Of a stretch of DNA of 64,000 bases, positions 48,567-60,734 are shown one piece after another. The notes beneath the pieces are model-generated. The model made no database searches, was not told where the DNA came from, and saw nothing but the letters and a program-made list of their open reading frames with translations. Where the stretch lies: contig JADFXG010000011.1 in assembly GCA_015233895.1 (NCBI GenBank), positions 37,212 through 101,211 of the forward strand. The letters are read 5' to 3'. The DNA is from Nitrospirota bacterium. GTDB lineage: Bacteria > Nitrospirota > Thermodesulfovibrionia > Thermodesulfovibrionales > Magnetobacteriaceae. The translations under genes were made by a program, and so were the position numbers. Position 1 is the first letter of the stretch, and the number at the start of each line of letters is the position of its first letter.

Positions 48567-51008
48567 TCATATCTCAATCCTGACCTCGGCACCACTATCA
48601 CAATTTCTTACTGTTAAACTACCACCCATATTTGTTTCAATAATTGTCTTTGACATATAAAGCCCAATACCTGTCCCCCCGGCGCCCTTAGTTGTAAAAT
48701 AAGGCTCAAAGATTCTCTCTTTTATACTTTCAGGGATTCCCCCGCCATTGTCTTTTATTGAAACTATAACTTTGGATTTGCCTTCATTGTTATTTATACT
48801 AAGTTCTATCCACCCATTTATTTCAGGAGCATTTTTCTTTTTTGTTACAACTGCATCCCTTGAGTTATTCAAAATATTGAGCACCACCTGTTTAAACTCG
48901 TTAGGATATCCCTCAGTGACCAGTAATGCGTCCTGTTCAGTTTTGATAGAAATGTGTATCTTGCTTCTATTGAAAACATGTACAAACATTGACAACAACT
49001 CTTCTATGGCTGTTTTTACATTGAACAGTTGTTTTTCCTTTGCGGGAATAAAGAAGTTTTTGAAATCATCAATAGTTTTTGACATAAAGTTAATCTGATT
49101 CATTGTAGAGCCAACTATATCTTCAACATATTTATCATTAATCTCACCGCAGGAATATGTTTCGCCTAAATCCTGTATGTTTAATCCTATAGCATTCAAA
49201 GGTTGTCTCCATTGGTGGGCTATTAATCCTATCATCTCACCCATGGATGCCATCTTGGATTGTTGAATCAGCATTTGTTCCTGATTTTGTCTTTTTTCGG
49301 TCTCTGCTTTTACCATAGCCTCAAGATTGCAATTTAGTGTTTTTAAATCCTCGTCCATCCGTTTACGATCTATTGCTATGGCGTAAATAGCAGCTAAACG
49401 TTGTATGATATTAAGATCTTCATCTGTATAATCTCTCTCAGCATTTGAAAGCGCAATATTACCAATCAAATTATTTTTTATAATTGCCGGAACACACATA
49501 AAGCGCTTCACTGGAATATTCCCCTCAGGAATACAACATTTGTAAGCAGTGTGCTCTTTCGGGTTATTAGTGTAAAACGCCTGTTTTGTATCTATAGCGT
49601 ATCCCCACAAAGCATCATAGCCATCATTATCCTTTGGAAAAGCCAGTCGCAGGTATCTATTATCCACATTATACTGGCTGACTGTCTGCTCCGGCGCGCT
49701 TCTGTCTGTCTCTGAGACATATCCGTGTAAACTTTCCGTTAGTTTCATTGCCTGTTTATTTACAATTACAGAAATATCATCTATATCCATTTCAGGAGAG
49801 AGTAATGCCTCAGACACCTCTGCCACTGCTCTCTGAAAATCCAGTTCCCGTTTCATTATAGCCTGTGCTTTTTTAATGTCTGAAATATCATGAAATATTT
49901 CAAACTTATATATTGATTCGTCTATATTCCTTAATGGAGTATCGAAAAGCGAATATGTCTTGTTGTTTTTCGATGAATGCCATTCCCATGTAACGCTTTT
50001 TCCTGCAAAAACTTCATTGTTTTTACACCATGGGCATTGTTGCGTTCTGTCATGAAAATACTCGTAACACTTACGGCCATTCACTTCTCCGAACTCTTTT
50101 AGCAAAGATTTATTAATAAAATCTATATCATTGTCTTTAGTAACTATATATATACCATCCTCCATCGTATCCATTATCGATTTAAGCTTATCCCTCTCTG
50201 TTTTAATTATATCCTCCATCTGTTTCTTATAAGTTATATCTTCAACGATGGCCAGGCTAAGTGTTAGTTTATTTTCTCTTACACACAAGGGGATACATTT
50301 AAAGCTTACCCATACTATGTTTGAATCTTTACGAATATATCTTTTCTCCGTACTGAAAACTGATAAACTGCCGCTGTATAAACGTTTTAATCCATCCAGT
50401 TGTTGCGCGATATCATCTGGATGGGTAATGTTTTGCCATGTGAGTGTTGATAATTCATCGTGGGAATAACCAGTTATATTGCAGAAAGTTTGATTAAATT
50501 TAACTAATCTGCCGGAGGTTAACTCTATAATGTTAATTCCAATTGGCGCTTGCTCAAAGATAATCCTTATTTCTTTTTCCAACTCCTCGTTAGCTTTACG
50601 CAGCAGTTCGGAGTGTTCGGTAATTAACTGCTTTTGTTTGTGAAGTGCCAGAAAGGCATTTACCTTGCTTTTTAAAATCGCATCATCAACTGGTTTTACT
50701 AAGTAATCCACGGCTCCAATTTCATATCCTTTAGAAATAAATTTCTCTTCTATGCTTACTGCGCTTATGAAAATTATTGGAACCGTCCTGGTTTTGTTAT
50801 TGCTCCTGATAAAAGATGCCGTCTCAAAGCCGTCCATTTCAGGCATCTGCACATCCAGTATCACTAATGCAAACTCATCGCGCAAAAGATTCCACAGCGC
50901 CTCTTTACCGCTTACTGCTCTTACGATATTGACGTCGGGCTGGGCAAGGATGGTTTCCAGCACCAGAAGATTTTCCGCTCTGTCGTCAACAATTAATATA
51001 TTTTGCAT
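48567..51008 (-). CDS. Hybrid sensor kinase: N-terminal receiver, PAS x2, GAF-like, His-kinase core
   Basis: The receiver is ILIVDDRAENL...LVILDVQMPEMDGFE...IIFISA...DYLVKP, followed by two PAS regions and a GAF-like region. The H-box is IAHQWRQPLNAIG. The ATPase G-boxes are DNGGGIP and GTGIGLYMSK. Confidence 0.85.
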   Translation of the reverse strand: MQNILIVDDRAENLLVLETILAQPDVNIVRAVSGKEALWNLLRDEFALVILDVQMPEMDGFETASFIRSNNKTRTVPIIFISAVSIEEKFISKGYEIGAVDYLVKPVDDAILKSKVNAFLALHKQKQLITEHSELLRKANEELEKEIRIIFEQAPIGINIIELTSGRLVKFNQTFCNITGYSHDELSTLTWQNITHPDDIAQQLDGLKRLYSGSLSVFSTEKRYIRKDSNIVWVSFKCIPLCVRENKLTLSLAIVEDITYKKQMEDIIKTERDKLKSIMDTMEDGIYIVTKDNDIDFINKSLLKEFGEVNGRKCYEYFHDRTQQCPWCKNNEVFAGKSVTWEWHSSKNNKTYSLFDTPLRNIDESIYKFEIFHDISDIKKAQAIMKRELDFQRAVAEVSEALLSPEMDIDDISVIVNKQAMKLTESLHGYVSETDRSAPEQTVSQYNVDNRYLRLAFPKDNDGYDALWGYAIDTKQAFYTNNPKEHTAYKCCIPEGNIPVKRFMCVPAIIKNNLIGNIALSNAERDYTDEDLNIIQRLAAIYAIAIDRKRMDEDLKTLNCNLEAMVKAETEKRQNQEQMLIQQSKMASMGEMIGLIAHQWRQPLNAIGLNIQDLGETYSCGEINDKYVEDIVGSTMNQINFMSKTIDDFKNFFIPAKEKQLFNVKTAIEELLSMFVHVFNRSKIHISIKTEQDALLVTEGYPNEFKQVVLNILNNSRDAVVTKKKNAPEINGWIELSINNNEGKSKVIVSIKDNGGGIPESIKERIFEPYFTTKGAGGTGIGLYMSKTIIETNMGGSLTVRNCDSGAEVRIEI

Positions 51009-51016
51009 ATATATTC

Positions 51017-51580
51017 TTACCTCGATAATTCGTTAAGTTTATCAGCAATCTCAGGCAAATTTAAAATATAGTCAACCGTGCTTTCATTGATTGCTGCCAG
51101 GGGCATTGCTGGATATTGTGCGCTTTCAGGGTTTTGTACTATCGTTGTGCCTCCCCGCTCTTTTATCCTCTTTAAACCCACACTGCCATCACTGTTGGCT
51201 CCGGTCAATATTATACCAAAACAGTGCTTAGTAAAAGCATCCGCGGCAGTTTCAAAAAGCACGTCTATCGATGGACGGGAATAATTTACACGTGGATCCA
51301 CTGACAGAGAAAACGTTTTGTCGTCTTCTATCAGCAGATGATAATCCGGCGGAGCAATATATATAAAACCATTTTGAATTTTTTCCTTATCCTCTGCATA
51401 TTTGACCTTTAACCGGACAATTTTGCTGAAGAAATGAATTAACTCATCTTTTGTATCCCGATGCAAGTGTAATACCACTATGACAGGGAGGGGAAAATCG
51501 TCGGGCAACCCAATTAAAAGTCTTTTAAGCGCTTCAATCCCACCGGCGGATGCGCCTATTACAACAGCCTCATACTTCAT
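51017..51580 (-). CDS. cheB: CheB-type protein-glutamate methylesterase, catalytic domain only (no receiver)
   Basis: AVVIGASAGGIEAL (Ser), VVLHL (His) and ILTGANSDGSVGL (Asp) triad motifs. At 187 aa it has no receiver domain. Confidence 0.8.
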   Translation of the reverse strand: MKYEAVVIGASAGGIEALKRLLIGLPDDFPLPVIVVLHLHRDTKDELIHFFSKIVRLKVKYAEDKEKIQNGFIYIAPPDYHLLIEDDKTFSLSVDPRVNYSRPSIDVLFETAADAFTKHCFGIILTGANSDGSVGLKRIKERGGTTIVQNPESAQYPAMPLAAINESTVDYILNLPEIADKLNELSR

Positions 51581-52436
51581 GGCACTCCTTTTGGGAATTT
51601 GAGACAGGGTTTCTTTTATATATCTTTTCCTCTTTCAGAACCTGTATATAATTGTTGGAAAAGCTTGAGAGCCGAATGGTTTCTTTTGAACCCAGGCAAA
51701 GATAGCCGCCCGTCTCCAGCGATTCGGTAAATAATCCAAACACTCTGTTCTGCAGCTCTCTGTTAAAATATATCAACACGTTTCTGCAAAAAATGATGTT
51801 CATCTCACCAAACACACCGTCTGATGCAAGGTTATGAACTGAAAACACTACGTTTTGTTTTAACGACTGATCAATTATAGCACAATCACCTTCAGTTGTG
51901 AAGTAATCGCTGAATGAGTGCATCCCTCCGGTCTGTAAGTAGTTGGAGGCGTATTTTTTTAATAATTTCAGATCAAAGATGCCCTTTTTTGCACTATTTA
52001 GCGCTCTCTCGCTGTAATCGGTTGCGTATATTATGGTTTTATCGTAAAGGTTTTCCTCTCTTAGCACTATGCTAAGGGAATACACCTCCTCGCCGGTTGA
52101 GCAGCCTGCTACCCAGATTTTTAGAAATGGCAATTGGCTTAGCTCAGGAATTATAGTTTTTCTCAAAGTATGAAAGAACTCAGGGTCACGGAACATCTCG
52201 GTTGTGCTTATCGAAAAATCCCCGAGCAATTCTACAAAAAACGGCCTGTCATATATCACTCTGTTAATAATTTCAGTTATCTTGTTTATCCCCGATACAG
52301 ACATCCTGTGCTTTATTCTTCTTTTTATCGAGGCTTTTGAATAATTTCTGAAATCGTATCCGTACTTTGAGTGTATAGCCTCAAGAAGGAGCATTATTTC
52401 TAAGTTTTCATTGTCTTCGTTATCGTAGTAGTCCAT
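51570..52436 (-). CDS. cheR: CheR-type protein-glutamate O-methyltransferase
   Basis: The N-terminal helical domain is LLLEAIHSKYGYDFRNYSKASIKRRIKHRM, followed by TEMFRDPEFF. The SAM motif is IWVAGCSTGEEVYSL, followed by IFCRNVLIYF. It overlaps cheB by 11 nt. Confidence 0.85.
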   Translation of the reverse strand: MDYYDNEDNENLEIMLLLEAIHSKYGYDFRNYSKASIKRRIKHRMSVSGINKITEIINRVIYDRPFFVELLGDFSISTTEMFRDPEFFHTLRKTIIPELSQLPFLKIWVAGCSTGEEVYSLSIVLREENLYDKTIIYATDYSERALNSAKKGIFDLKLLKKYASNYLQTGGMHSFSDYFTTEGDCAIIDQSLKQNVVFSVHNLASDGVFGEMNIIFCRNVLIYFNRELQNRVFGLFTESLETGGYLCLGSKETIRLSSFSNNYIQVLKEEKIYKRNPVSNSQKECHEV

Positions 52437-52470
52437 ATGCTATACCTGTTTTATACCGTTAATAAAAAAA

Positions 52471-52615
52471 GACATGGATTCCTGCCTGCGCAGGAATGAC
52501 AGAAAAAAGACGGAATAACAGAAAATAAACTCCAGCCTCCTTTGTCATCCCGCACCGCCCCTTTGTCATCCCGCATCACCCCTTTGTCATCCCGCACTTG
52601 TTGCGGGATCCAGTC
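52471..52615. repeat. Intergenic repeat cluster: two related hairpin palindromes in inverted orientation flanking three 21-bp tandem repeats
   Basis: Hairpin A at 52478-52497 is ATTCCTGC-ctgc-GCAGGAAT. Hairpin B at 52589-52609 is ATCCCGCA-cttgt-TGCGGGAT. Their flanks GACATGGA.. and ..TCCAGTC are mutually reverse-complementary. CCTTTGTCATCCCGCA starts at 52539, 52560 and 52581. Confidence 0.85.
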
Positions 52616-52655
52616 CTTTTTTTCCCGTAATTTATTTTGAAGGTTAATTTCTGTC

Positions 52656-55600
52656 TCATTGATATAGCCAAATTCGTAACAGGGACAGAAGTCTGTCCTT
52701 ATCAACAGGTTTTGAAATATAATCGTTTGCTCCGGCCTCTATGCACCTCATTCTGTCTTCTTTCATTGCCTTAGCGGTGAGAGCTATGATCGGTATCTCT
52801 TTATATTGTTTGATTTTCCTTACCTCACTTATTGCTGCGTAACCGTCCATCTCCGGCATCATTATGTCCATAAGTATAACCTCAAGTGTATCGTTTTTCT
52901 TTAATATATCGAGGCACTCTGTCCCGTTTCTTGCCGTAAACACGTTCATTCCCTCCCCCTCAAGTATGCTCGTTAAGGCAAACACGTTTCTGGAATCATC
53001 ATCGGTTACCAGTATGTTTCTGTTCTTAAATATATGCTCTTTATCGTGCACTCTCAGGAGTATCTTCTGTTTTTCCTCCGGCAATTGTGATTCCTCAAGA
53101 TGTAAAAACAGCACGATTTCATCAAGCAGCCTGTCGGGTGATTTTACAGTTTTAAGCACTATCCTGTGGGCATACATGTTGAGTTTTATCTCATCCCCGA
53201 CACTAAGCTGTGAGCTGTTATAGATTATTACCGGTATGTTGCACAGTGTTTCCGAGTTTTTTATTATATCTAAAAAAGTGAAACTTACAGGCTCATTATC
53301 TGTAATATTCATTATTATAAAATTATACTGATTAGATTCTACTATCTTTTGAGCTTTTTTTGCCGACACATAATCCACGCCCACGTAAGTGTTTTTTAAC
53401 AGTTCCTTAAGTGCCGTCTCCTGTTGAATATTAAGGTTAATTGCCAGAATCTGTTTTTTTTCATCAGAGTAGATACTTTCCAGTCTGTTGAAAGCCTCTT
53501 CAATGTTTTTCATGTTGACGGGCTTTGTTAAATAGCCGACACTGCCGGATTTCATAACATCTATGTTTTTTTCCGATGCAGATATTATGTGTATTGGAAT
53601 GTTGCGCGTCTCCGAGGAGTCTTTTAACCTTTCAATAACCGTCCAACCATCTAAATCTGGCAAACCCATGTCCAAAATTATCGCATTAGGTTTATATTTA
53701 TGTGCGTACCCTATGCCGTGTCCTCCGTCCTGTGCTATTATGCACTTATAGCCTCTTTCGCGGCTTATTTCCAGCAGGATTTTTGCAAATGCTATGTCAT
53801 CCTCTATTATTAAGATTGATTTATCATCCGGTGACATGCTCTCCCTGTCATCCTCTGACACTTTTCCTATCAATTTAAGTTGGGATTTGCTCTCCAGTGT
53901 TTTTTCAGAGAGTACATCAGAAGGAGCAACGTGTTGTACGTCAGGTATAAGTATGGTAAAGGTACTGCCTGAGCCAACCTCACTCTTAACTGTTATTTCA
54001 CCTCTGAGCAGCTTAACCAATTCTTTGGATATTGTAAGCCCAAGCCCGGTGCCTCCGAACCGTCTGCTCGTTGTTCCATCGGCTTGTTTAAAAGCCTCAA
54101 AAATAACTCCTAACTTATCCGCATGAATTCCAATGCCGGTGTCGGAAACTGAAATTGACAATGCGTTGCCGAGAGAATCCTTGTCTATCATTACCCTGAT
54201 GAAGCCTTTTTCTTCTGTAAATTTAATGGCATTTGACAGCAGGTTTCTGATTATCTGCTCTGTTTTTTGAACATCGGTGTGAATATACTTTGGTGCATTT
54301 TCTGATACAATCACTTGTAAAGACAAATTCTTTTCCTCTGCAAAAGGTGAAAATGTCCTCACTATAAATGTTTTCAGCCTGTCTGTCTCCATGGCCCCGA
54401 TGTTTAATTCAACTTTGCCGGCCTCGACTTTTGACAGATCCAGAATATCGTTTATCAATAGCAGAAGGTCATTGCCCGATGAGTAAACCGTTGAGGCACA
54501 CTCCACTTGTTTTTCTGTAAGGTTGCCCTCTTTATTTTCCATGAGAAATTTTGAAAGTAACAGGACACTGTTAAGCGGTGTTCTCAACTCATGCGACATG
54601 TTTGCCAGGAACTCTGATTTATACTTGCTCGTTATTTCGAGTTCCCTGGTTTTTTGAAGGTTAAGCTCCTGATTTCTTTCAAGTTGTATGTTCTTTTTCT
54701 TTATCTCATCCCGTTGTTTTTCCATAAGGCGTGCGTGTTCCTCGAGCTCCTCGTTGGCCTGCCTGAGTTCCTCCTGTTGTTCCTGAAGCTTAAGTTCAGA
54801 GGCTCTCAGCGTCTTTGTCTGATTTGCCAGAGCCTCATTGTTAGCCCTTAATTCCTCCTGCTGTTCCTGAAGCTCCTCGGACTGGTTTTGGGTAAGAATC
54901 AAAAGTTCTTTCATACTATCCCGTGATTGTACTACGCCGAAAGATATTGCAATAGCCTCGGAAACAGATTTCATAAACTCCATATGACGTTCTGTGAATG
55001 CTGTGAATGCTCCCAGCTCTATAACGCCTTTTACCTCACCGTTATAAATAAGCGGCGTAACCAATATGTTTGAGGGTGCGCTCTCTCCCAGCCCTGATGT
55101 TATCTTTATATAATCTTCAGGAACCTCTGTTAATAGTATGCTTTGTTTTTCCAGCGCAGCCTGACCTGTCACTCCGTCTCCAAATGCAAATTCGTTAGAC
55201 AAATTCTTTCGTTTTGTGTGTGCATATGTGCCGGTTAGCTTCAGGGTGTTTTGGGTTTTCTGCGTCAGGTAAATTGCTCCTATCAGTGCTCCCATGTATT
55301 CGGAAATAAACACTATCAGTCTTTGAGAAAGAGTTATAACATCCTGTTCGCCGCGCATTATTTCGCCTATTTGTGTGTATCCTGTTTTTTTCCAGTCCTC
55401 GATGTCTCTGTCAGAAGATATATTGCGTAAGTTTTCCGTCATAAGCAGAAACGATTTGGATAACTGGCCTATTTCGCCCCGCTCTGATACATCTATGTTA
55501 ATGTTTAAATTACCTGAACCTATTTCTTTGGTTATTAGTATTAACCTTCTAATAGGAGAGGTAATGCTCCGTGTAAAGATAAACGCAAATACACTGCAGA

Positions 55601-56195
55601 TAAGCATTGCTCCAGCTAAAATAAAATATAAAATATTTCTGGATTCATTATTTGATTTCTGAGTGTTTTCATAAAACAACTTTGCTTTGACAGAGGCAAA
55701 CTCTATTGCTTCTTTTAGTAACTTCTCATTGTCTGTAGCATTTTCGTACAATTTAGTATCCAACTGTTTCTCAGCCTCAGTCTTTTTGCCCTGTAACAGC
55801 AGATCAAAATAATCATCGTGAAGCGAAATATATTTCTCATAATTTTTACGAATGTTTCTTATTATTTTTTTATCGCCCAAAAACATATCTTCTGCTACTG
55901 TCAGATCGTTTAATATTTCAGGGTCTATAGCGGATATCTCTGTTTTCATTTCCAAAACAGCTTCATTATTAGGCAGAAAATAAGCCTTTCTTAATAAATA
56001 TCTGGCTCTGAATATATTCGCATCGGTTGATAGTAATTTGCCTTTTACCGTGAAAGGATGCTCGTAGAGATTTTTTATCTGATTGGCTGCGAAATCCAGT
56101 CTGCTTATTGAATAAGAGAACAGAAGAAGAAAAACAAATAACATGAGCAGATACCCTATGGCAATACGAGTTCCGATTTTTAGATTTTTAATCAT
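52656..56195 (-). CDS. Hybrid sensor kinase: 4-helix-bundle (MCP-like) sensor, HAMP, GAF, long Glu/Gln-rich coiled coil, HisKA/HATPase, three receiver domains
   Basis: AGGAGA RBS. Two TM segments flank a helical periplasmic region. HAMP is ITSPIRRLILITKEIGSGNLNINI, followed by a GAF domain. The coiled coil reads SEELQEQQEELRANNEALANQ...LQEQQEELRQANEELEEH. The H-box is FLANMSHELRTPLN and the G-box is GTGLGLTISK. The receivers include ILIIEDD..DMGLPDLDGW and ILVTDDD..LMDIMMPEMDG...YISKP. Confidence 0.85.
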   Translation of the reverse strand: MIKNLKIGTRIAIGYLLMLFVFLLLFSYSISRLDFAANQIKNLYEHPFTVKGKLLSTDANIFRARYLLRKAYFLPNNEAVLEMKTEISAIDPEILNDLTVAEDMFLGDKKIIRNIRKNYEKYISLHDDYFDLLLQGKKTEAEKQLDTKLYENATDNEKLLKEAIEFASVKAKLFYENTQKSNNESRNILYFILAGAMLICSVFAFIFTRSITSPIRRLILITKEIGSGNLNINIDVSERGEIGQLSKSFLLMTENLRNISSDRDIEDWKKTGYTQIGEIMRGEQDVITLSQRLIVFISEYMGALIGAIYLTQKTQNTLKLTGTYAHTKRKNLSNEFAFGDGVTGQAALEKQSILLTEVPEDYIKITSGLGESAPSNILVTPLIYNGEVKGVIELGAFTAFTERHMEFMKSVSEAIAISFGVVQSRDSMKELLILTQNQSEELQEQQEELRANNEALANQTKTLRASELKLQEQQEELRQANEELEEHARLMEKQRDEIKKKNIQLERNQELNLQKTRELEITSKYKSEFLANMSHELRTPLNSVLLLSKFLMENKEGNLTEKQVECASTVYSSGNDLLLLINDILDLSKVEAGKVELNIGAMETDRLKTFIVRTFSPFAEEKNLSLQVIVSENAPKYIHTDVQKTEQIIRNLLSNAIKFTEEKGFIRVMIDKDSLGNALSISVSDTGIGIHADKLGVIFEAFKQADGTTSRRFGGTGLGLTISKELVKLLRGEITVKSEVGSGSTFTILIPDVQHVAPSDVLSEKTLESKSQLKLIGKVSEDDRESMSPDDKSILIIEDDIAFAKILLEISRERGYKCIIAQDGGHGIGYAHKYKPNAIILDMGLPDLDGWTVIERLKDSSETRNIPIHIISASEKNIDVMKSGSVGYLTKPVNMKNIEEAFNRLESIYSDEKKQILAINLNIQQETALKELLKNTYVGVDYVSAKKAQKIVESNQYNFIIMNITDNEPVSFTFLDIIKNSETLCNIPVIIYNSSQLSVGDEIKLNMYAHRIVLKTVKSPDRLLDEIVLFLHLEESQLPEEKQKILLRVHDKEHIFKNRNILVTDDDSRNVFALTSILEGEGMNVFTARNGTECLDILKKNDTLEVILMDIMMPEMDGYAAISEVRKIKQYKEIPIIALTAKAMKEDRMRCIEAGANDYISKPVDKDRLLSLLRIWLYQ

Positions 56196-56257
56196 TGATT
56201 TCTCCTTAATATGGTATCTTTCTTATGAGAGTTTTCAGGTGCCAGTAATTGTAACTC

Positions 56258-58576
56258 CTAAGAATCAGCTCTGTCTATTTCAAATAAAGGGTCAGCACAT
56301 TCATCAGTTGTTTCATTATCGTAAAACATATACCTGTTTTTTCCAAGTTCCTTTGCCTTATACATCGCCATATCCGCTCTTTTTATAAAAACACTGCTTA
56401 AGTTGTCAATTTCATCACTTAATTGACCGAATGGATACACCTCAATACCTATACTTGCGCCTATGTGGCATTCATACTCATTTATTAAAAATACCGTATT
56501 CAATGATGAAATAATCTTATCTGCAATCATTACCACATCATTCTGTTCACTTATTTTACTGAGAATAATAATGAACTCATCTCCACCTATACGGGAAACT
56601 GTATCTGTTTTTCGCACAATACTTAACAACCTTTTTGAAACATCCTTGAGTAAAACATCGCCGGTTTGATGTCCATAATTATCATTAACTGCCTTAAAAT
56701 TATCCAGGTCTATAAATAACAATGCCATCTTATACTTTTCACGTTTGGCAAATTCAATCGAGGTGTTTAACCTGTCCAAAAGTAATATCCGGTTAGGCAG
56801 AGATGTAACTGTATCGTAGTGGGCAAGGAGCTGGAGTTGCTTCTCATAGTATTTTCTTTGAGTTATGTTTCTGAGCACGTAAACGCACTGGGTTACATTA
56901 CCATTTTCATCTTTTATTGGCGATGCTGAGCATGAGACATATATTTCTTTTCCATCTTTATCATAATGCAGGTGTTCACTCATCGAATACTCACCGGTGC
57001 GTAACATATTCATAACAGGACATGAGTACTCTTGTTGGTTACAAGGTTCAGAGCTATTATGAATAACCATATAACAGTGTTTGCCTGTAACATCATTCTC
57101 ATATACTCTGTACTCTTTCAGGAATTTGTTATTAGTGCTGACGATTGTAAAATCTTTAACGTCTATCACAGCAATAGAATCATTTATGCTGTTAATTACT
57201 GTATCAATAAAAATATTATGTCTCTTTATGGTATCCTCAATTGCTCCATGTTCGATTATGCTTGCAATCGAATTGGATATTGCTATAAAAAAATCCTCTT
57301 CCAACTTGGTTCTTTCATGATTATGCTTAACGTAAACACATAAAGTGCCCAATAACTTATTGCCGGATTTTATAGGGACACAGTAGTGCCCATGTTCGTG
57401 CATTCCTTCATATGAAATATTGTGTAATTCATCAATCTTATTAGAAAATACTATTTTATGTGTGCTTGCAGCGATACCACAAAGACAGTGTCCATAGCTT
57501 ATTCGTGCACATTGTTTTAATAAAGACTCATGCAGATTTCTTTGTGCAGCCATCACTAACTCTTCGGAATTATCTACTGTGATATGTATGCAACCTTTAT
57601 TCTCTAATCCTATATTTGGAACAGAAACGACAATGTCTATAATTCTCTCCAGTTTATTTTTGAGAGGAATCTGCTCCAGGGATAGTTCGAGGATATATTT
57701 AATCGTATCTTGCAGTATCTCTCTTTGTTTCAACTCAGTGATGTTTTTTGCTATCTGTTTTCCCAATGATATCTCAGATGACAACAATATATCTCTTTCC
57801 TTGAGTTTATCCAGCATAGAGTTTATGTTTTTAAGAATTCCTTTTTGGTTTTGATTTTTAAGCAGTTTATAGTCGATGTGTAAATTGCCTTGTGAAATGT
57901 TATCTAATATGTCTATGATTTCGTGCGGTTCAGCTCCTAATTCATTAATAAATGACTTAATTACCCTGGCAGCAATTAATGTGCTAATTATGATTGACAA
58001 TACTAATGCAAATATGATACATAACATGAAAATATTATATAAAGCCGATGATTCAAGCTCACTTTCCTCCATTCTTTTTGTTTGAAAGTCAGTAAGATCG
58101 AGCATTGTTTTTGTTAACATATTTGAACTTGCCGTTTGCTTGTTGATTAATAATTCTTTTGATTCATGTAACTTACCCAACATAACGCTATTGGTATATT
58201 CCCGCAAAATTGAAAAATAAGTCTCCTGTGTATCTGAGATTGCTTTTAATAATAATTTGCCTTCCTTGCTTCTGATAACAGAAGTCAATTTCCCTTTACT
58301 TTCTATAATAATGTTCTTGTATTTTTCAATATTATCTAATTCTTTTTTTCTTAGCGTACTGTCCTCAATGATGAGTAATTTATTTGATGAAAGACTAATA
58401 TCTCTTACGGCGTAGAGCATATCATCTAAGATCGCTGTTTTTGGATATCTGTCGTTGACTAACTTGTCTATTGTATTACGGAACGAGTTTAACATCAAAA
58501 CAGCAATAACACCGTTGATGATTAAAAATACTAATATCACACCATGAGAAAAGCTAAATTTTGTTCCTAACTTCAT
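56258..58576 (-). CDS. Membrane diguanylate cyclase: 4-helix-bundle sensor, HAMP, GAF-like, PAS, GGDEF
   Basis: It has two TM segments and a HAMP-like RVIKSFINELGAEPHEIIDILDNISQGNL. A Cys/His-containing GAF-like region and a PAS domain follow. The GGDEF core is LLFIDLDNFKAVNDNYGHQTGD...VSRIGGDEFIIIL. There is no EAL domain. Confidence 0.85.
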   Translation of the reverse strand: MKLGTKFSFSHGVILVFLIINGVIAVLMLNSFRNTIDKLVNDRYPKTAILDDMLYAVRDISLSSNKLLIIEDSTLRKKELDNIEKYKNIIIESKGKLTSVIRSKEGKLLLKAISDTQETYFSILREYTNSVMLGKLHESKELLINKQTASSNMLTKTMLDLTDFQTKRMEESELESSALYNIFMLCIIFALVLSIIISTLIAARVIKSFINELGAEPHEIIDILDNISQGNLHIDYKLLKNQNQKGILKNINSMLDKLKERDILLSSEISLGKQIAKNITELKQREILQDTIKYILELSLEQIPLKNKLERIIDIVVSVPNIGLENKGCIHITVDNSEELVMAAQRNLHESLLKQCARISYGHCLCGIAASTHKIVFSNKIDELHNISYEGMHEHGHYCVPIKSGNKLLGTLCVYVKHNHERTKLEEDFFIAISNSIASIIEHGAIEDTIKRHNIFIDTVINSINDSIAVIDVKDFTIVSTNNKFLKEYRVYENDVTGKHCYMVIHNSSEPCNQQEYSCPVMNMLRTGEYSMSEHLHYDKDGKEIYVSCSASPIKDENGNVTQCVYVLRNITQRKYYEKQLQLLAHYDTVTSLPNRILLLDRLNTSIEFAKREKYKMALLFIDLDNFKAVNDNYGHQTGDVLLKDVSKRLLSIVRKTDTVSRIGGDEFIIILSKISEQNDVVMIADKIISSLNTVFLINEYECHIGASIGIEVYPFGQLSDEIDNLSSVFIKRADMAMYKAKELGKNRYMFYDNETTDECADPLFEIDRADS

Positions 58577-58841: not shown

Positions 58842-60734
58842 ATGGGATTATTTAAGGCGTTTTCCGGAAAAAGCGAAAATTCAAAGAATGTTCCTCAACA
58901 GCCGATAGTAAAAGAAAAACTACTCAATAATCGCCGCAGCATACGGTATTTGGTTGAGGATGTTCCTATTGGGGAGACAGGTGTTTTAGTTAATATAGGC
59001 AGGGGCGGCTGTAAGTTGAAAAAGTTGTCGCCAGACCTTATAGATATGCCTGAGATAAAAGTTACAATTGCCGGAAAGGAATACCGAAGCAGAGTGGTCT
59101 GGCAGGACGACAAACACATAGGTCTCGAACTTCAGGGAGGGTTTGAATCCTCCGAGTTTATAATAAAATACCTGAAAAAGGTCAGAGATATAAGCATAAG
59201 GCCACTCAGAAGGCTTTCTGATGAAGCAATCAAGGGTTTTGTTGAAAAAGATATGCTTGGTATAATGGTTAACCTTATGGCTGAACTTGAGGCGCCAAAC
59301 TGCGATATGTCACGTATGAAACTCTTTGTCTGCAAGCTTTCCGGACTAAAAGAGGCGGTTGCTGAAAAAGCCAACATAATCAGAACAGAAGAGGAGGTCG
59401 TAACACTTAAAGACGTAGATTATGCGATAAAAAGACTGGGCACTGATACGGTAAAAAAAGTATCCCTTGAGTATATAAAGAAAAAATCCTCGGAAATAGA
59501 GGTTCCGGAGTGGGGAGCACATTTTTATGACTCATATAAAATTCTGAAAACGGTTTTCTTTTCTAAACTTGCTCCTTTTTTTGGATATAAAGACAATCAG
59601 AACCTTGCTGAGGCCATTTTAAACCTTGAAACTAAGGGTGTGGATATATTTCTTAATAAAGGTAATAAGAATTTTATGAAATTTTACAATTCTCCAACCA
59701 AAATATATTCCGAGCTGACACGTTTTCTTGAAAAAATTAACTTTGGAAAAGATCTAATTCAGGTAAATAAGATTTATATAACCTCTGTCAGAAAACCCAC
59801 CACCGCTCTTTACGACGGATATGTGCTTGCCCACCTTGCCCGTTACCCTCATATCACTCTTGACAAATCAATGAAACTATCTTTAAATAAAATTGTTCTT
59901 AACTTTTCTTTGATTTGCAATCTGACTATACTTGCCACTGAGGCATTCATTGAAAAGGACAAGTATGCTAACTCGGTTTTAGTCCACAAACTGAAACGCA
60001 CGGGAATGGATGAAAATAAGCTACTGCTGTTTCTGGATAATATCGTTAACGAAACAAACAAAATAATGAACGACATTGGCAAGAGGGGCAATTTAAAAGG
60101 AATTAATATAAGCGGCACACCTATAAGAATAAGAGAATTTCTGGCAAAGGAGCCAAATACTGATAGATTTCTCAACTCTTTTAAAGAGTTCAAAGATAAG
60201 AAACGGCTGGTTATTAAATATGAAGATGACACTTATACACACTACATCCTCGGCAGAATACTGGATTCTGAGGAGTTTGAACTGAATACAAAGTTATGCT
60301 GCATTTTGCCATGTGAGTGCCTGTTGTCTGAGGATTTCAGTGTTGAGCAGTTTTCTTACTTCAATGTAGTGGTGTTTAAAAATATAGATCAGTTATCTCC
60401 TTCTCTCCTAAGAAGCCTTGTTAAGATGTGGAACACATTTGAGGGAAGCATTATCCTGACTTTTAGCGCTTACAGTATGCTTGATTACAGCAACAAAGAG
60501 CTCTTTTTACTTTTAAGGAAATATATTGTTGACTTTCCATCGTATTTCGCCGATCAAAAAATATACATCAAAATGGTTGAACATGTGACAAGTTACATCA
60601 AAAACTGCACAAACGGAGGCGCTCCGGATGACTCACTTTATACAAACAACGTCATAACCATGGACCACATAAGGGGCAGTGCCCTCCTGCAGGCTGCTCA
60701 GTCGCTGGAGGAGGAAGAGGAGAGTAAACCATAA
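58842..60734 (+). CDS. Protein with an N-terminal PilZ-like domain and an uncharacterised C-terminal region of about 500 aa
   Basis: NRRSIRYLVED...GVLVNIGRGGCKL fits the PilZ RxxxR ... (D/N)x(S/G)xGG pattern. I do not recognise the rest of the protein. The C-terminal tail is acidic (EEEEESKP). Confidence 0.6.
   Translation: MGLFKAFSGKSENSKNVPQQPIVKEKLLNNRRSIRYLVEDVPIGETGVLVNIGRGGCKLKKLSPDLIDMPEIKVTIAGKEYRSRVVWQDDKHIGLELQGGFESSEFIIKYLKKVRDISIRPLRRLSDEAIKGFVEKDMLGIMVNLMAELEAPNCDMSRMKLFVCKLSGLKEAVAEKANIIRTEEEVVTLKDVDYAIKRLGTDTVKKVSLEYIKKKSSEIEVPEWGAHFYDSYKILKTVFFSKLAPFFGYKDNQNLAEAILNLETKGVDIFLNKGNKNFMKFYNSPTKIYSELTRFLEKINFGKDLIQVNKIYITSVRKPTTALYDGYVLAHLARYPHITLDKSMKLSLNKIVLNFSLICNLTILATEAFIEKDKYANSVLVHKLKRTGMDENKLLLFLDNIVNETNKIMNDIGKRGNLKGINISGTPIRIREFLAKEPNTDRFLNSFKEFKDKKRLVIKYEDDTYTHYILGRILDSEEFELNTKLCCILPCECLLSEDFSVEQFSYFNVVVFKNIDQLSPSLLRSLVKMWNTFEGSIILTFSAYSMLDYSNKELFLLLRKYIVDFPSYFADQKIYIKMVEHVTSYIKNCTNGGAPDDSLYTNNVITMDHIRGSALLQAAQSLEEEEESKP

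Follow-up and report, generated by a model that had tools for sequence, protein, structure and literature searches.

A CheR and receiver-less CheB pair beside a hybrid histidine kinase in a Nitrospirota genome: likely a kinase-centred methylation module

This article compares a cassette made of a hybrid sensor histidine kinase, a CheR-type methyltransferase and a CheB methylesterase, from a Nitrospirota bacterium of the family Magnetobacteriaceae, with the closest systems described in the literature. The cassette lies in a 64,000-nucleotide stretch of contig JADFXG010000011.1, which is called the window below and whose numbering is used throughout. In B. cereus, RsbM methylates the signalling helix of the kinase RsbK in vitro, controlling kinase output (PMC4574943). 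In P. putida, a role in chemotaxis was ruled out for cfcB and cfcC (PMC4951495, citing Garcia-Fontana 2013). A 2022 preprint (bioRxiv 10.1101/2022.05.07.491037) refers to the methyl-accepting coiled coil (MAC) systems, MAC1 and MAC2, of Wuichet and Zhulin 2010. In its description, MAC2 combines a kinase whose coiled coil is putatively methyl-accepting with separate CheB- and CheR-related proteins, and this class had had no experimental characterisation. A first-pass annotation of the window, made from the letters alone, had proposed that glutamate methylation acts directly on a kinase or on a neighbouring diguanylate cyclase. As a new idea, direct methylation of a kinase does not stand, since RsbM acting on RsbK, the cfcABCDE cluster and the MAC classification had already been published (PMC4574943, PMC4951495, bioRxiv 10.1101/2022.05.07.491037).

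With the window cassette, a magnetotactic Nitrospirota lineage supplies a further example of a module that is already known and is widespread. We consider it likely to be a kinase-centred CheR/CheB module of the kind of cfcABCD(E) and RsbK-RsbM, with MAC2 as the most likely class. It has a kinase with a Glu-rich heptad coiled coil, separate adjacent cheR and cheB genes, a distinct CheR lineage and a receiver-less CheB, and, matched to the description of the class in the preprint, it likely belongs to MAC2. Judged by sequence comparison, the kinase is the most likely substrate of CheR and CheB, by way of its Glu/Gln-rich coiled coil, because the CheR falls in a separate clade, the cassette occurs in genomes without methyl-accepting chemotaxis proteins (MCPs), the helix carries Glu pairs, and RsbM provides a precedent. 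That the helix is the acceptor, which of its residues are modified, and that the outcome is adaptation and not a fixed set-point are points that we infer. The comparison thus supports the kinase half of the earlier proposal well and does not support the cyclase half.

Five minus-strand genes were found at 48567-58576 from open reading frames and Pfam matches, in the order cyclase, hybrid kinase, CheR, receiver-less CheB and REC-PAS-GAF kinase. The gene set and domain make-up given by the first-pass annotation were borne out by the open reading frames, Pfam and the translations, with small corrections. The features are as follows, in the direction of transcription.

56258-58576, minus strand: diguanylate cyclase, 772 amino acids; Pfam 4HB_MCP_1, GAF, PAS and GGDEF, with the GGDEF and RxxD motifs intact
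52656-56195, minus strand: hybrid sensor histidine kinase, 1179 amino acids; Pfam 4HB_MCP_1, HAMP, GAF, coiled coil, HisKA, HATPase, REC, REC-like segment, REC
54633-54905, minus strand: signalling helix of the hybrid kinase, residues 431-521, between the GAF domain and the H-box, from the alignment of homologues
52437-52655, minus strand: intergenic region from the kinase gene to cheR, with repeats, hairpins and a terminator-like stem-loop
51570-52436, minus strand: CheR-type protein-glutamate methyltransferase, 288 amino acids; Pfam CheR_N and S-adenosylmethionine-binding domain, conserved residues, trees
51017-51580, minus strand: CheB methylesterase/deamidase, catalytic domain only, 187 amino acids; Pfam and invariant columns
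48567-51008, minus strand: REC-PAS-GAF histidine kinase, 813 amino acids; Pfam REC, PAS, GAF, HisKA (weak) and HATPase

The absence of MCP, CheA and CheW genes that had been noted for the window agrees with Pfam, which gave no match to MCPsignal, CheW or the CheA dimerisation domain anywhere in the 64 kb. No NCBIfam model is specific to the kinase, CheR or CheB, every match being far under its cut-off, and close homologues carry the names Nitrospirota, Candidatus Magnetominusculus and Candidatus Magnetobacterium.

In trees, the window CheR groups with other CheRs encoded beside kinases, in a clade apart from the CheRs of chemotaxis clusters. A single branch, with a Shimodaira-Hasegawa-like approximate likelihood ratio test (SH-aLRT) value of 99, split 36 kinase-adjacent CheRs from 10 others, which came from the window's genome, Paenibacillus, Microcoleus and a Rickettsiales bin. 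One Paenibacillus row (L138) was moved to the kinase-adjacent set after the tree had been seen; its flank encodes a kinase. The clade includes Bacillota CheR-only pairs of the RsbM type. The window CheB conserves the triad Ser11-His38-Asp131 and is the sole receiver-less one among the genome's five CheB proteins. Compared with canonical MCP adaptation, the two enzyme families are the same and their catalytic residues are intact, and the acceptor would again be a coiled-coil dimer whose Glu/Gln pairs are spaced by heptads. The differences are that the window cluster has no MCP signalling domain, CheA, CheW, MCP consensus or pentapeptide, that its CheB lacks a receiver, and that its CheR sits on a long separate branch.

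Relatives were used to see how far the cassette is conserved. A receiver-less CheB orthologue, at 54-76% identity, was present in 15 of the 20 other genomes of the family that were searched, and none was found in the searched other families of the order; receiver-bearing CheBs share 29-37% identity with the window CheB. All 14 family relatives with contigs reaching far enough keep the order kinase-CheR-CheB, and the REC-kinase gene follows in only some of them. The first-pass annotation had also called for a survey of receiver-less cheRB pairs near HAMP kinases. In a scan with one genome per species, covering 80 kinase loci from more than 10 phyla, the triad proved syntenic across phyla: a CheR and a receiver-less CheB stood beside the kinase in 17 loci. 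In 16 of these the pair follows the kinase immediately, and in an Anaerolinea locus it lies about 5 kb upstream. In all, the kinase-CheR-CheB core was seen in at least 9 phyla besides that of the window. The 17 loci come from Pseudomonadota, Bacteroidota, Cyanobacteriota, Gemmatimonadota, Chloroflexota, Bdellovibrionota and Thermodesulfobacteriota, and their CheB stop-to-stop frames measure 190-250 amino acids, except for one of 323 (L052). More than 8000 homologues, with a variety of N-terminal sensors, share the HAMP-GAF-helix-HisKA core of the kinase, so the kinase-CheR-CheB cassette is very widespread, yet it has been biochemically neglected in the literature searched.

Three Bacteroidota isolates were informative about the target. 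The genomes of Chryseobacterium takakiae, Flavobacterium notoginsengisoli and Sediminibacterium goheungense (L062, L063, L064) encode one CheR each, and it is kinase-adjacent. No MCPsignal and no CheW match was found genome-wide in these three, which means that MCPs cannot be the target there.

The signalling helix of the window kinase is about 90 residues long and contains two tandem blocks of the form Q-x-Q-Q-E-E-L-x-x-x-N-E-[EA]-L, at residues 437-463 and 465-491. A Leu stands at every seventh residue, Gln or Asn takes the other core position, and EE pairs stand just ahead of each Leu, at 440/441, 447/448, 475/476 and 482/483. The coiled-coil peptide quoted in the first-pass annotation matches residues 438-486 exactly and is encoded at 54738-54884. 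In the alignment of 36 diverse homologues the helix is almost invariant, reading Q-x-Q-Q-E-E-L-x-x-x-N-E-E-L-E-E in two tandem blocks. Among the lineages that have both CheR and CheB, conservation of acidic residues in the helix is highest at E448 and E476 (19 of 20 lineages), and N453, N481 and Q473 are conserved in 20 of 20. Within the cassette, conserved heptad-spaced Glu pairs occur in this helix only. E448 and E476 are the predicted candidate acceptor residues. For comparison, Glu439 and Glu446 of RsbK, seven residues apart, are said to have been identified as methylation sites by Chen et al. 2012.

Residues assigned to the domains of the kinase are H535 (HisKA), D842 (first REC) and D1110 (last REC). 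Of the three receivers that had been assigned to it, two are intact, at about 794-902 and 1061-1173. The segment between them, residues 921-1055 (53031-53435, minus strand), is REC-like but degenerate: it goes unrecognised by Pfam, and in the window's lineage other residues stand at the positions of the acidic pocket and the phospho-acceptor that homologues keep.

The published architecture of RsbK is close to that of the window kinase, with a sensor of the 4HB/CHASE3 clan, HAMP, GAF, a signalling helix, HisKA/HATPase and a C-terminal REC (PMC4574943, PMC12848376). In both systems a CheR homologue adjoins the kinase, and the Bacillota kinase-adjacent CheRs share the clade of the window CheR. 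RsbM, however, is an orphan without a paired esterase, whereas the window cassette has a CheB. RsbK output runs through the RsbY PP2C phosphatase to sigma B. The CheR-adjacent helices of Bacillota are 7-14 residues shorter in two loci (L083, L100) and full length in a third (L053). Paenibacillus solanacearum (L053/L136 and L138), which carries this third locus, has two separate hybrid-kinase and CheR pairs of the RsbK-RsbM type plus a chemotaxis CheR.

The cfcABCDE cluster has the order hybrid CHASE3/GAF-type kinase, CheR, CheB, receiver-containing protein (PMC4951495, PMC8175716), and it is by this gene order and by domain description that CfcA is likened to the window kinase. Related Pseudomonas clusters are bmsA of P. 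alkylphenolica and 3082-3079 of P. brassicacearum (PMC6849547, PMC8175716). A functional tie to cyclic di-GMP (c-di-GMP) is a further likeness. The sensors differ, the window kinase having 4HB_MCP_1 (PF12729) and no CHASE3 match, although the two belong to one Pfam clan (PMC8846402). No report of CfcA methylation was found in the literature searched.

The first-pass annotation had compared the EEL heptads of the kinase with those of CheB-CheR fusion kinases, and such proteins do exist among the relatives. MAC1-type CheB-CheR fusion kinases of 980-1220 amino acids were seen in three of them (G003, G005 and G023; L126, L127 and L128), and each carries 5-7 S-[ST]-N-E-E-L-Q heptads behind its CheR domain. 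That heptad fits the MCP consensus, unlike the window helix, and the sole MAC1-type CheR sampled falls outside the kinase-adjacent clade. No CheB-CheR fusion was found among the CheR/CheB matches of the window's genome.

Several observations weigh against the kinase helix as the site of reversible methylation. No biochemical test of this kinase, or of any CheB-containing cassette, was found in the literature searched. The MCP methylation consensus is missing from the kinase, its helix included, and from the cyclase, and the same holds for a tethering pentapeptide; both motifs had been suggested as things to look for in the two proteins, and there were 0 matches where 1.06 and 0.36 were expected from shuffled sequences. 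With 0 consensus matches on the helix, recognition must differ from that of MCPs, which agrees with the long branch leading to this CheR clade. We take the missing consensus to mean a different recognition motif and not a refutation of kinase methylation. Homologous kinases without a nearby CheR, such as those of Actinomycetota, keep the EE pairs fairly well too, so CheR alone cannot account for the conservation of these pairs.

A further point of this kind concerns the length of the helix. Kinases with the full two-block helix (n=23) had CheR and CheB adjacent in 18 cases, CheR only in 3 and neither in 2, and those with a deletion of 14-28 residues in the helix (n=36) had both in 0, CheR only in 6 and neither in 30. 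Taken as raw counts, the long helix seems to go with CheB adjacency, which is a suggestive lead. On the kinase tree, the link falls mostly within one clade and comes down to about three independent contrasts, none of them opposite, and for that reason the association carries no statistical weight.

The chemoreceptors of the window's own genome have to be weighed too. This 3.7-Mb assembly encodes about 25-30 MCPs, five CheRs, five CheBs, five CheAs and many CheWs, so that CheR and CheB could act on MCPs here. The pair would then be a fifth adaptation set for some of the chemoreceptors and its place beside the kinase incidental, which we consider very unlikely. The large number of MCP, CheA and CheW genes would favour this, as would six MCPs (contigs C44, C11, C22 and C38) with acidic aromatic C-terminal tails, EFESY, EFEKY and DYENY, which resemble variant CheR/CheB-tethering pentapeptides; the classical xWxxF is in none of the six. 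But the genome has four other CheR and four receiver-bearing CheB genes, most of which adjoin che genes (one cheR-cheB pair, on C11, has no CheA or CheW match nearby), the window CheR sits in a clade defined by kinase adjacency, and the same cassette persists in genomes lacking both MCP and CheW. On the contig of the window cassette, the distance to the nearest MCP genes is about 70 kb.

With the kinase as the preferred substrate, the following mechanism is proposed. The periplasmic four-helix bundle of the membrane hybrid kinase would sense the signal, perhaps with the GAF domain also taking part, and a long coiled coil of marginal stability would relay the signal to the dimerisation and histidine phosphotransfer (DHp) and catalytic core. 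CheR would methylate exposed glutamates of the coiled coil, with the second Glu of the heptad-spaced EE pairs, foremost E448 and E476, as candidates. The receiver-less CheB would strip the methyl groups and may deamidate neighbouring Gln; because it has no receiver, its activity in this scheme would be unregulated. The level of methylation would then set the kinase/phosphatase balance, and with it the flow of phosphoryl groups, both to the receivers within the hybrid kinase and to the REC-PAS-GAF kinase encoded after cheB.

The CheB also bears on the outcome, and it too counts against the proposed adaptation. It lacks the receiver that chemotaxis kinases use for feedback. The helix may instead be methylated as a fixed set-point or lock, as has been proposed for RsbK, in which methylation together with the receiver would hold the kinase off, with CheB serving only to reset or deamidate; this seems unlikely to us. 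In B. cereus, RsbM methylation keeps the kinase constitutively repressed without the help of an esterase (PMC4574943), and the lack of a receiver in the window CheB does away with the classical phospho-feedback of kinase on esterase. Feedback could nevertheless come through conformation-dependent availability of the substrate, as in MCPs, and the retention of a dedicated esterase alongside the kinase across many phyla speaks for methyl-group turnover. Were the kinase helix reversibly methylated, sensory adaptation, a hallmark of chemotaxis, would extend to ordinary two-component signalling, even in bacteria free of chemoreceptors.

The gene after cheB helps to define the conserved unit. In 10 of the 17 other-phylum loci it opens with a REC domain 47-60% identical to that of the window REC-kinase, and the output domain behind this REC is a kinase in most of the 10 and GGDEF in two. 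The conserved unit thus consists of the kinase, the CheR/CheB pair and a cognate receiver protein whose output varies, and the REC-PAS-GAF kinase is probably the phospho-acceptor partner of the hybrid kinase. The two loci with a REC-GGDEF gene after cheB are from Nevskiaceae (L059) and Desulfomicrobium (L119). In them this kinase family is tied directly to c-di-GMP synthesis, a connection that therefore recurs in other phyla, as with CfcA and CfcR of P. putida. The window cyclase has no REC and so is not a CfcR-type response regulator.

The same gene raises the question of whether CheR and CheB act on another protein, be it the REC-PAS-GAF kinase, the cyclase or an orphan hybrid kinase on contig C22. 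We find this improbable. The REC-led gene recurs after cheB in those 10 loci, but the pair is not accompanied across genomes by the cyclase, nor by the output domains of the REC protein, and neither the cyclase nor the REC-PAS-GAF kinase has a Glu-rich coiled coil. The C22 kinase (C22:62014-65388; L129:7033-10392, plus strand) consists of a sensor, a helix, HisKA, HATPase, two REC domains and Hpt. Apart from the window kinase, no other protein of the genome has EEL heptads; those of the C22 kinase, four to five of the form 'ATNEELS' in the helix ahead of its kinase domains, conform to the MCP consensus [ASTG]xx[EQ][EQ]xx[ASTG], which speaks for it as a target. It is unlinked to any CheR or CheB, however, and would thus be an additional substrate at most.

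A joint reading can be put together from the helix counts and the C22 kinase. The extra heptad block, at residues of about 438-465, might make the window kinase a substrate of reversible CheB-dependent methylation, and the pair might serve the C22 kinase too; we offer this tentatively and doubt that both parts hold. If they did, a chemoreceptor-free two-component network, here beside a cyclase, would gain a true adaptation function. Irrespective of this, the window copy adds a Nitrospirota example, the candidate residues E448 and E476 and a possible second substrate to what is known of the module, and opens no new question.

The first-pass annotation treated the genes as one operon. CheR, CheB and the REC-kinase are tightly packed, cheR and cheB overlapping by 11 nucleotides and the REC-kinase gene starting 8 nucleotides past cheB. 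The kinase gene and cheR are 219 nucleotides apart, a gap that ranges from about 20 to about 420 nucleotides in relatives. Within it (52437-52655) there are three 21-bp direct repeats (GCGGGATGACAAAGG-like) with flanking hairpins. Between the kinase gene and cheR there is also a terminator-like stem-loop (52478-52497) with a T-run behind it, and this belongs with the points against the kinase as substrate. With the terminator-like hairpin and the repeats before cheR, a single operon is not certain.

The cyclase gene lies upstream of the kinase gene, 62 nucleotides away. Its MCP-type four-helix-bundle sensor was recovered by Pfam, and the HAMP domain that had also been assigned to it was not. 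The cyclase and the kinase had been given the same type of sensor, and both indeed match 4HB_MCP_1, but they have no detectable mutual similarity (BLASTP E=44). On that value, the idea that the two sensors are recent duplicates for one signal was rejected. Pfam and the sequence gave no EEL heptads, no receiver and no acceptor-like helix in the cyclase. None of 15 relatives has an orthologue of the cyclase beside the kinase, so that it is a local, lineage-specific neighbour outside the conserved core, and the cyclase was rejected as a member of the conserved module for this reason. The other neighbours of the cassette, among them a gene divergent from the cyclase, are likewise absent beside the kinase in relatives. 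This divergent gene encodes a protein of 630 amino acids at 58842-60734 on the plus strand, for which Pfam gave no match at E up to 1. Near its N-terminus are the sequences RRSIR and NIGRGG, which resemble the two c-di-GMP-binding motifs of PilZ.

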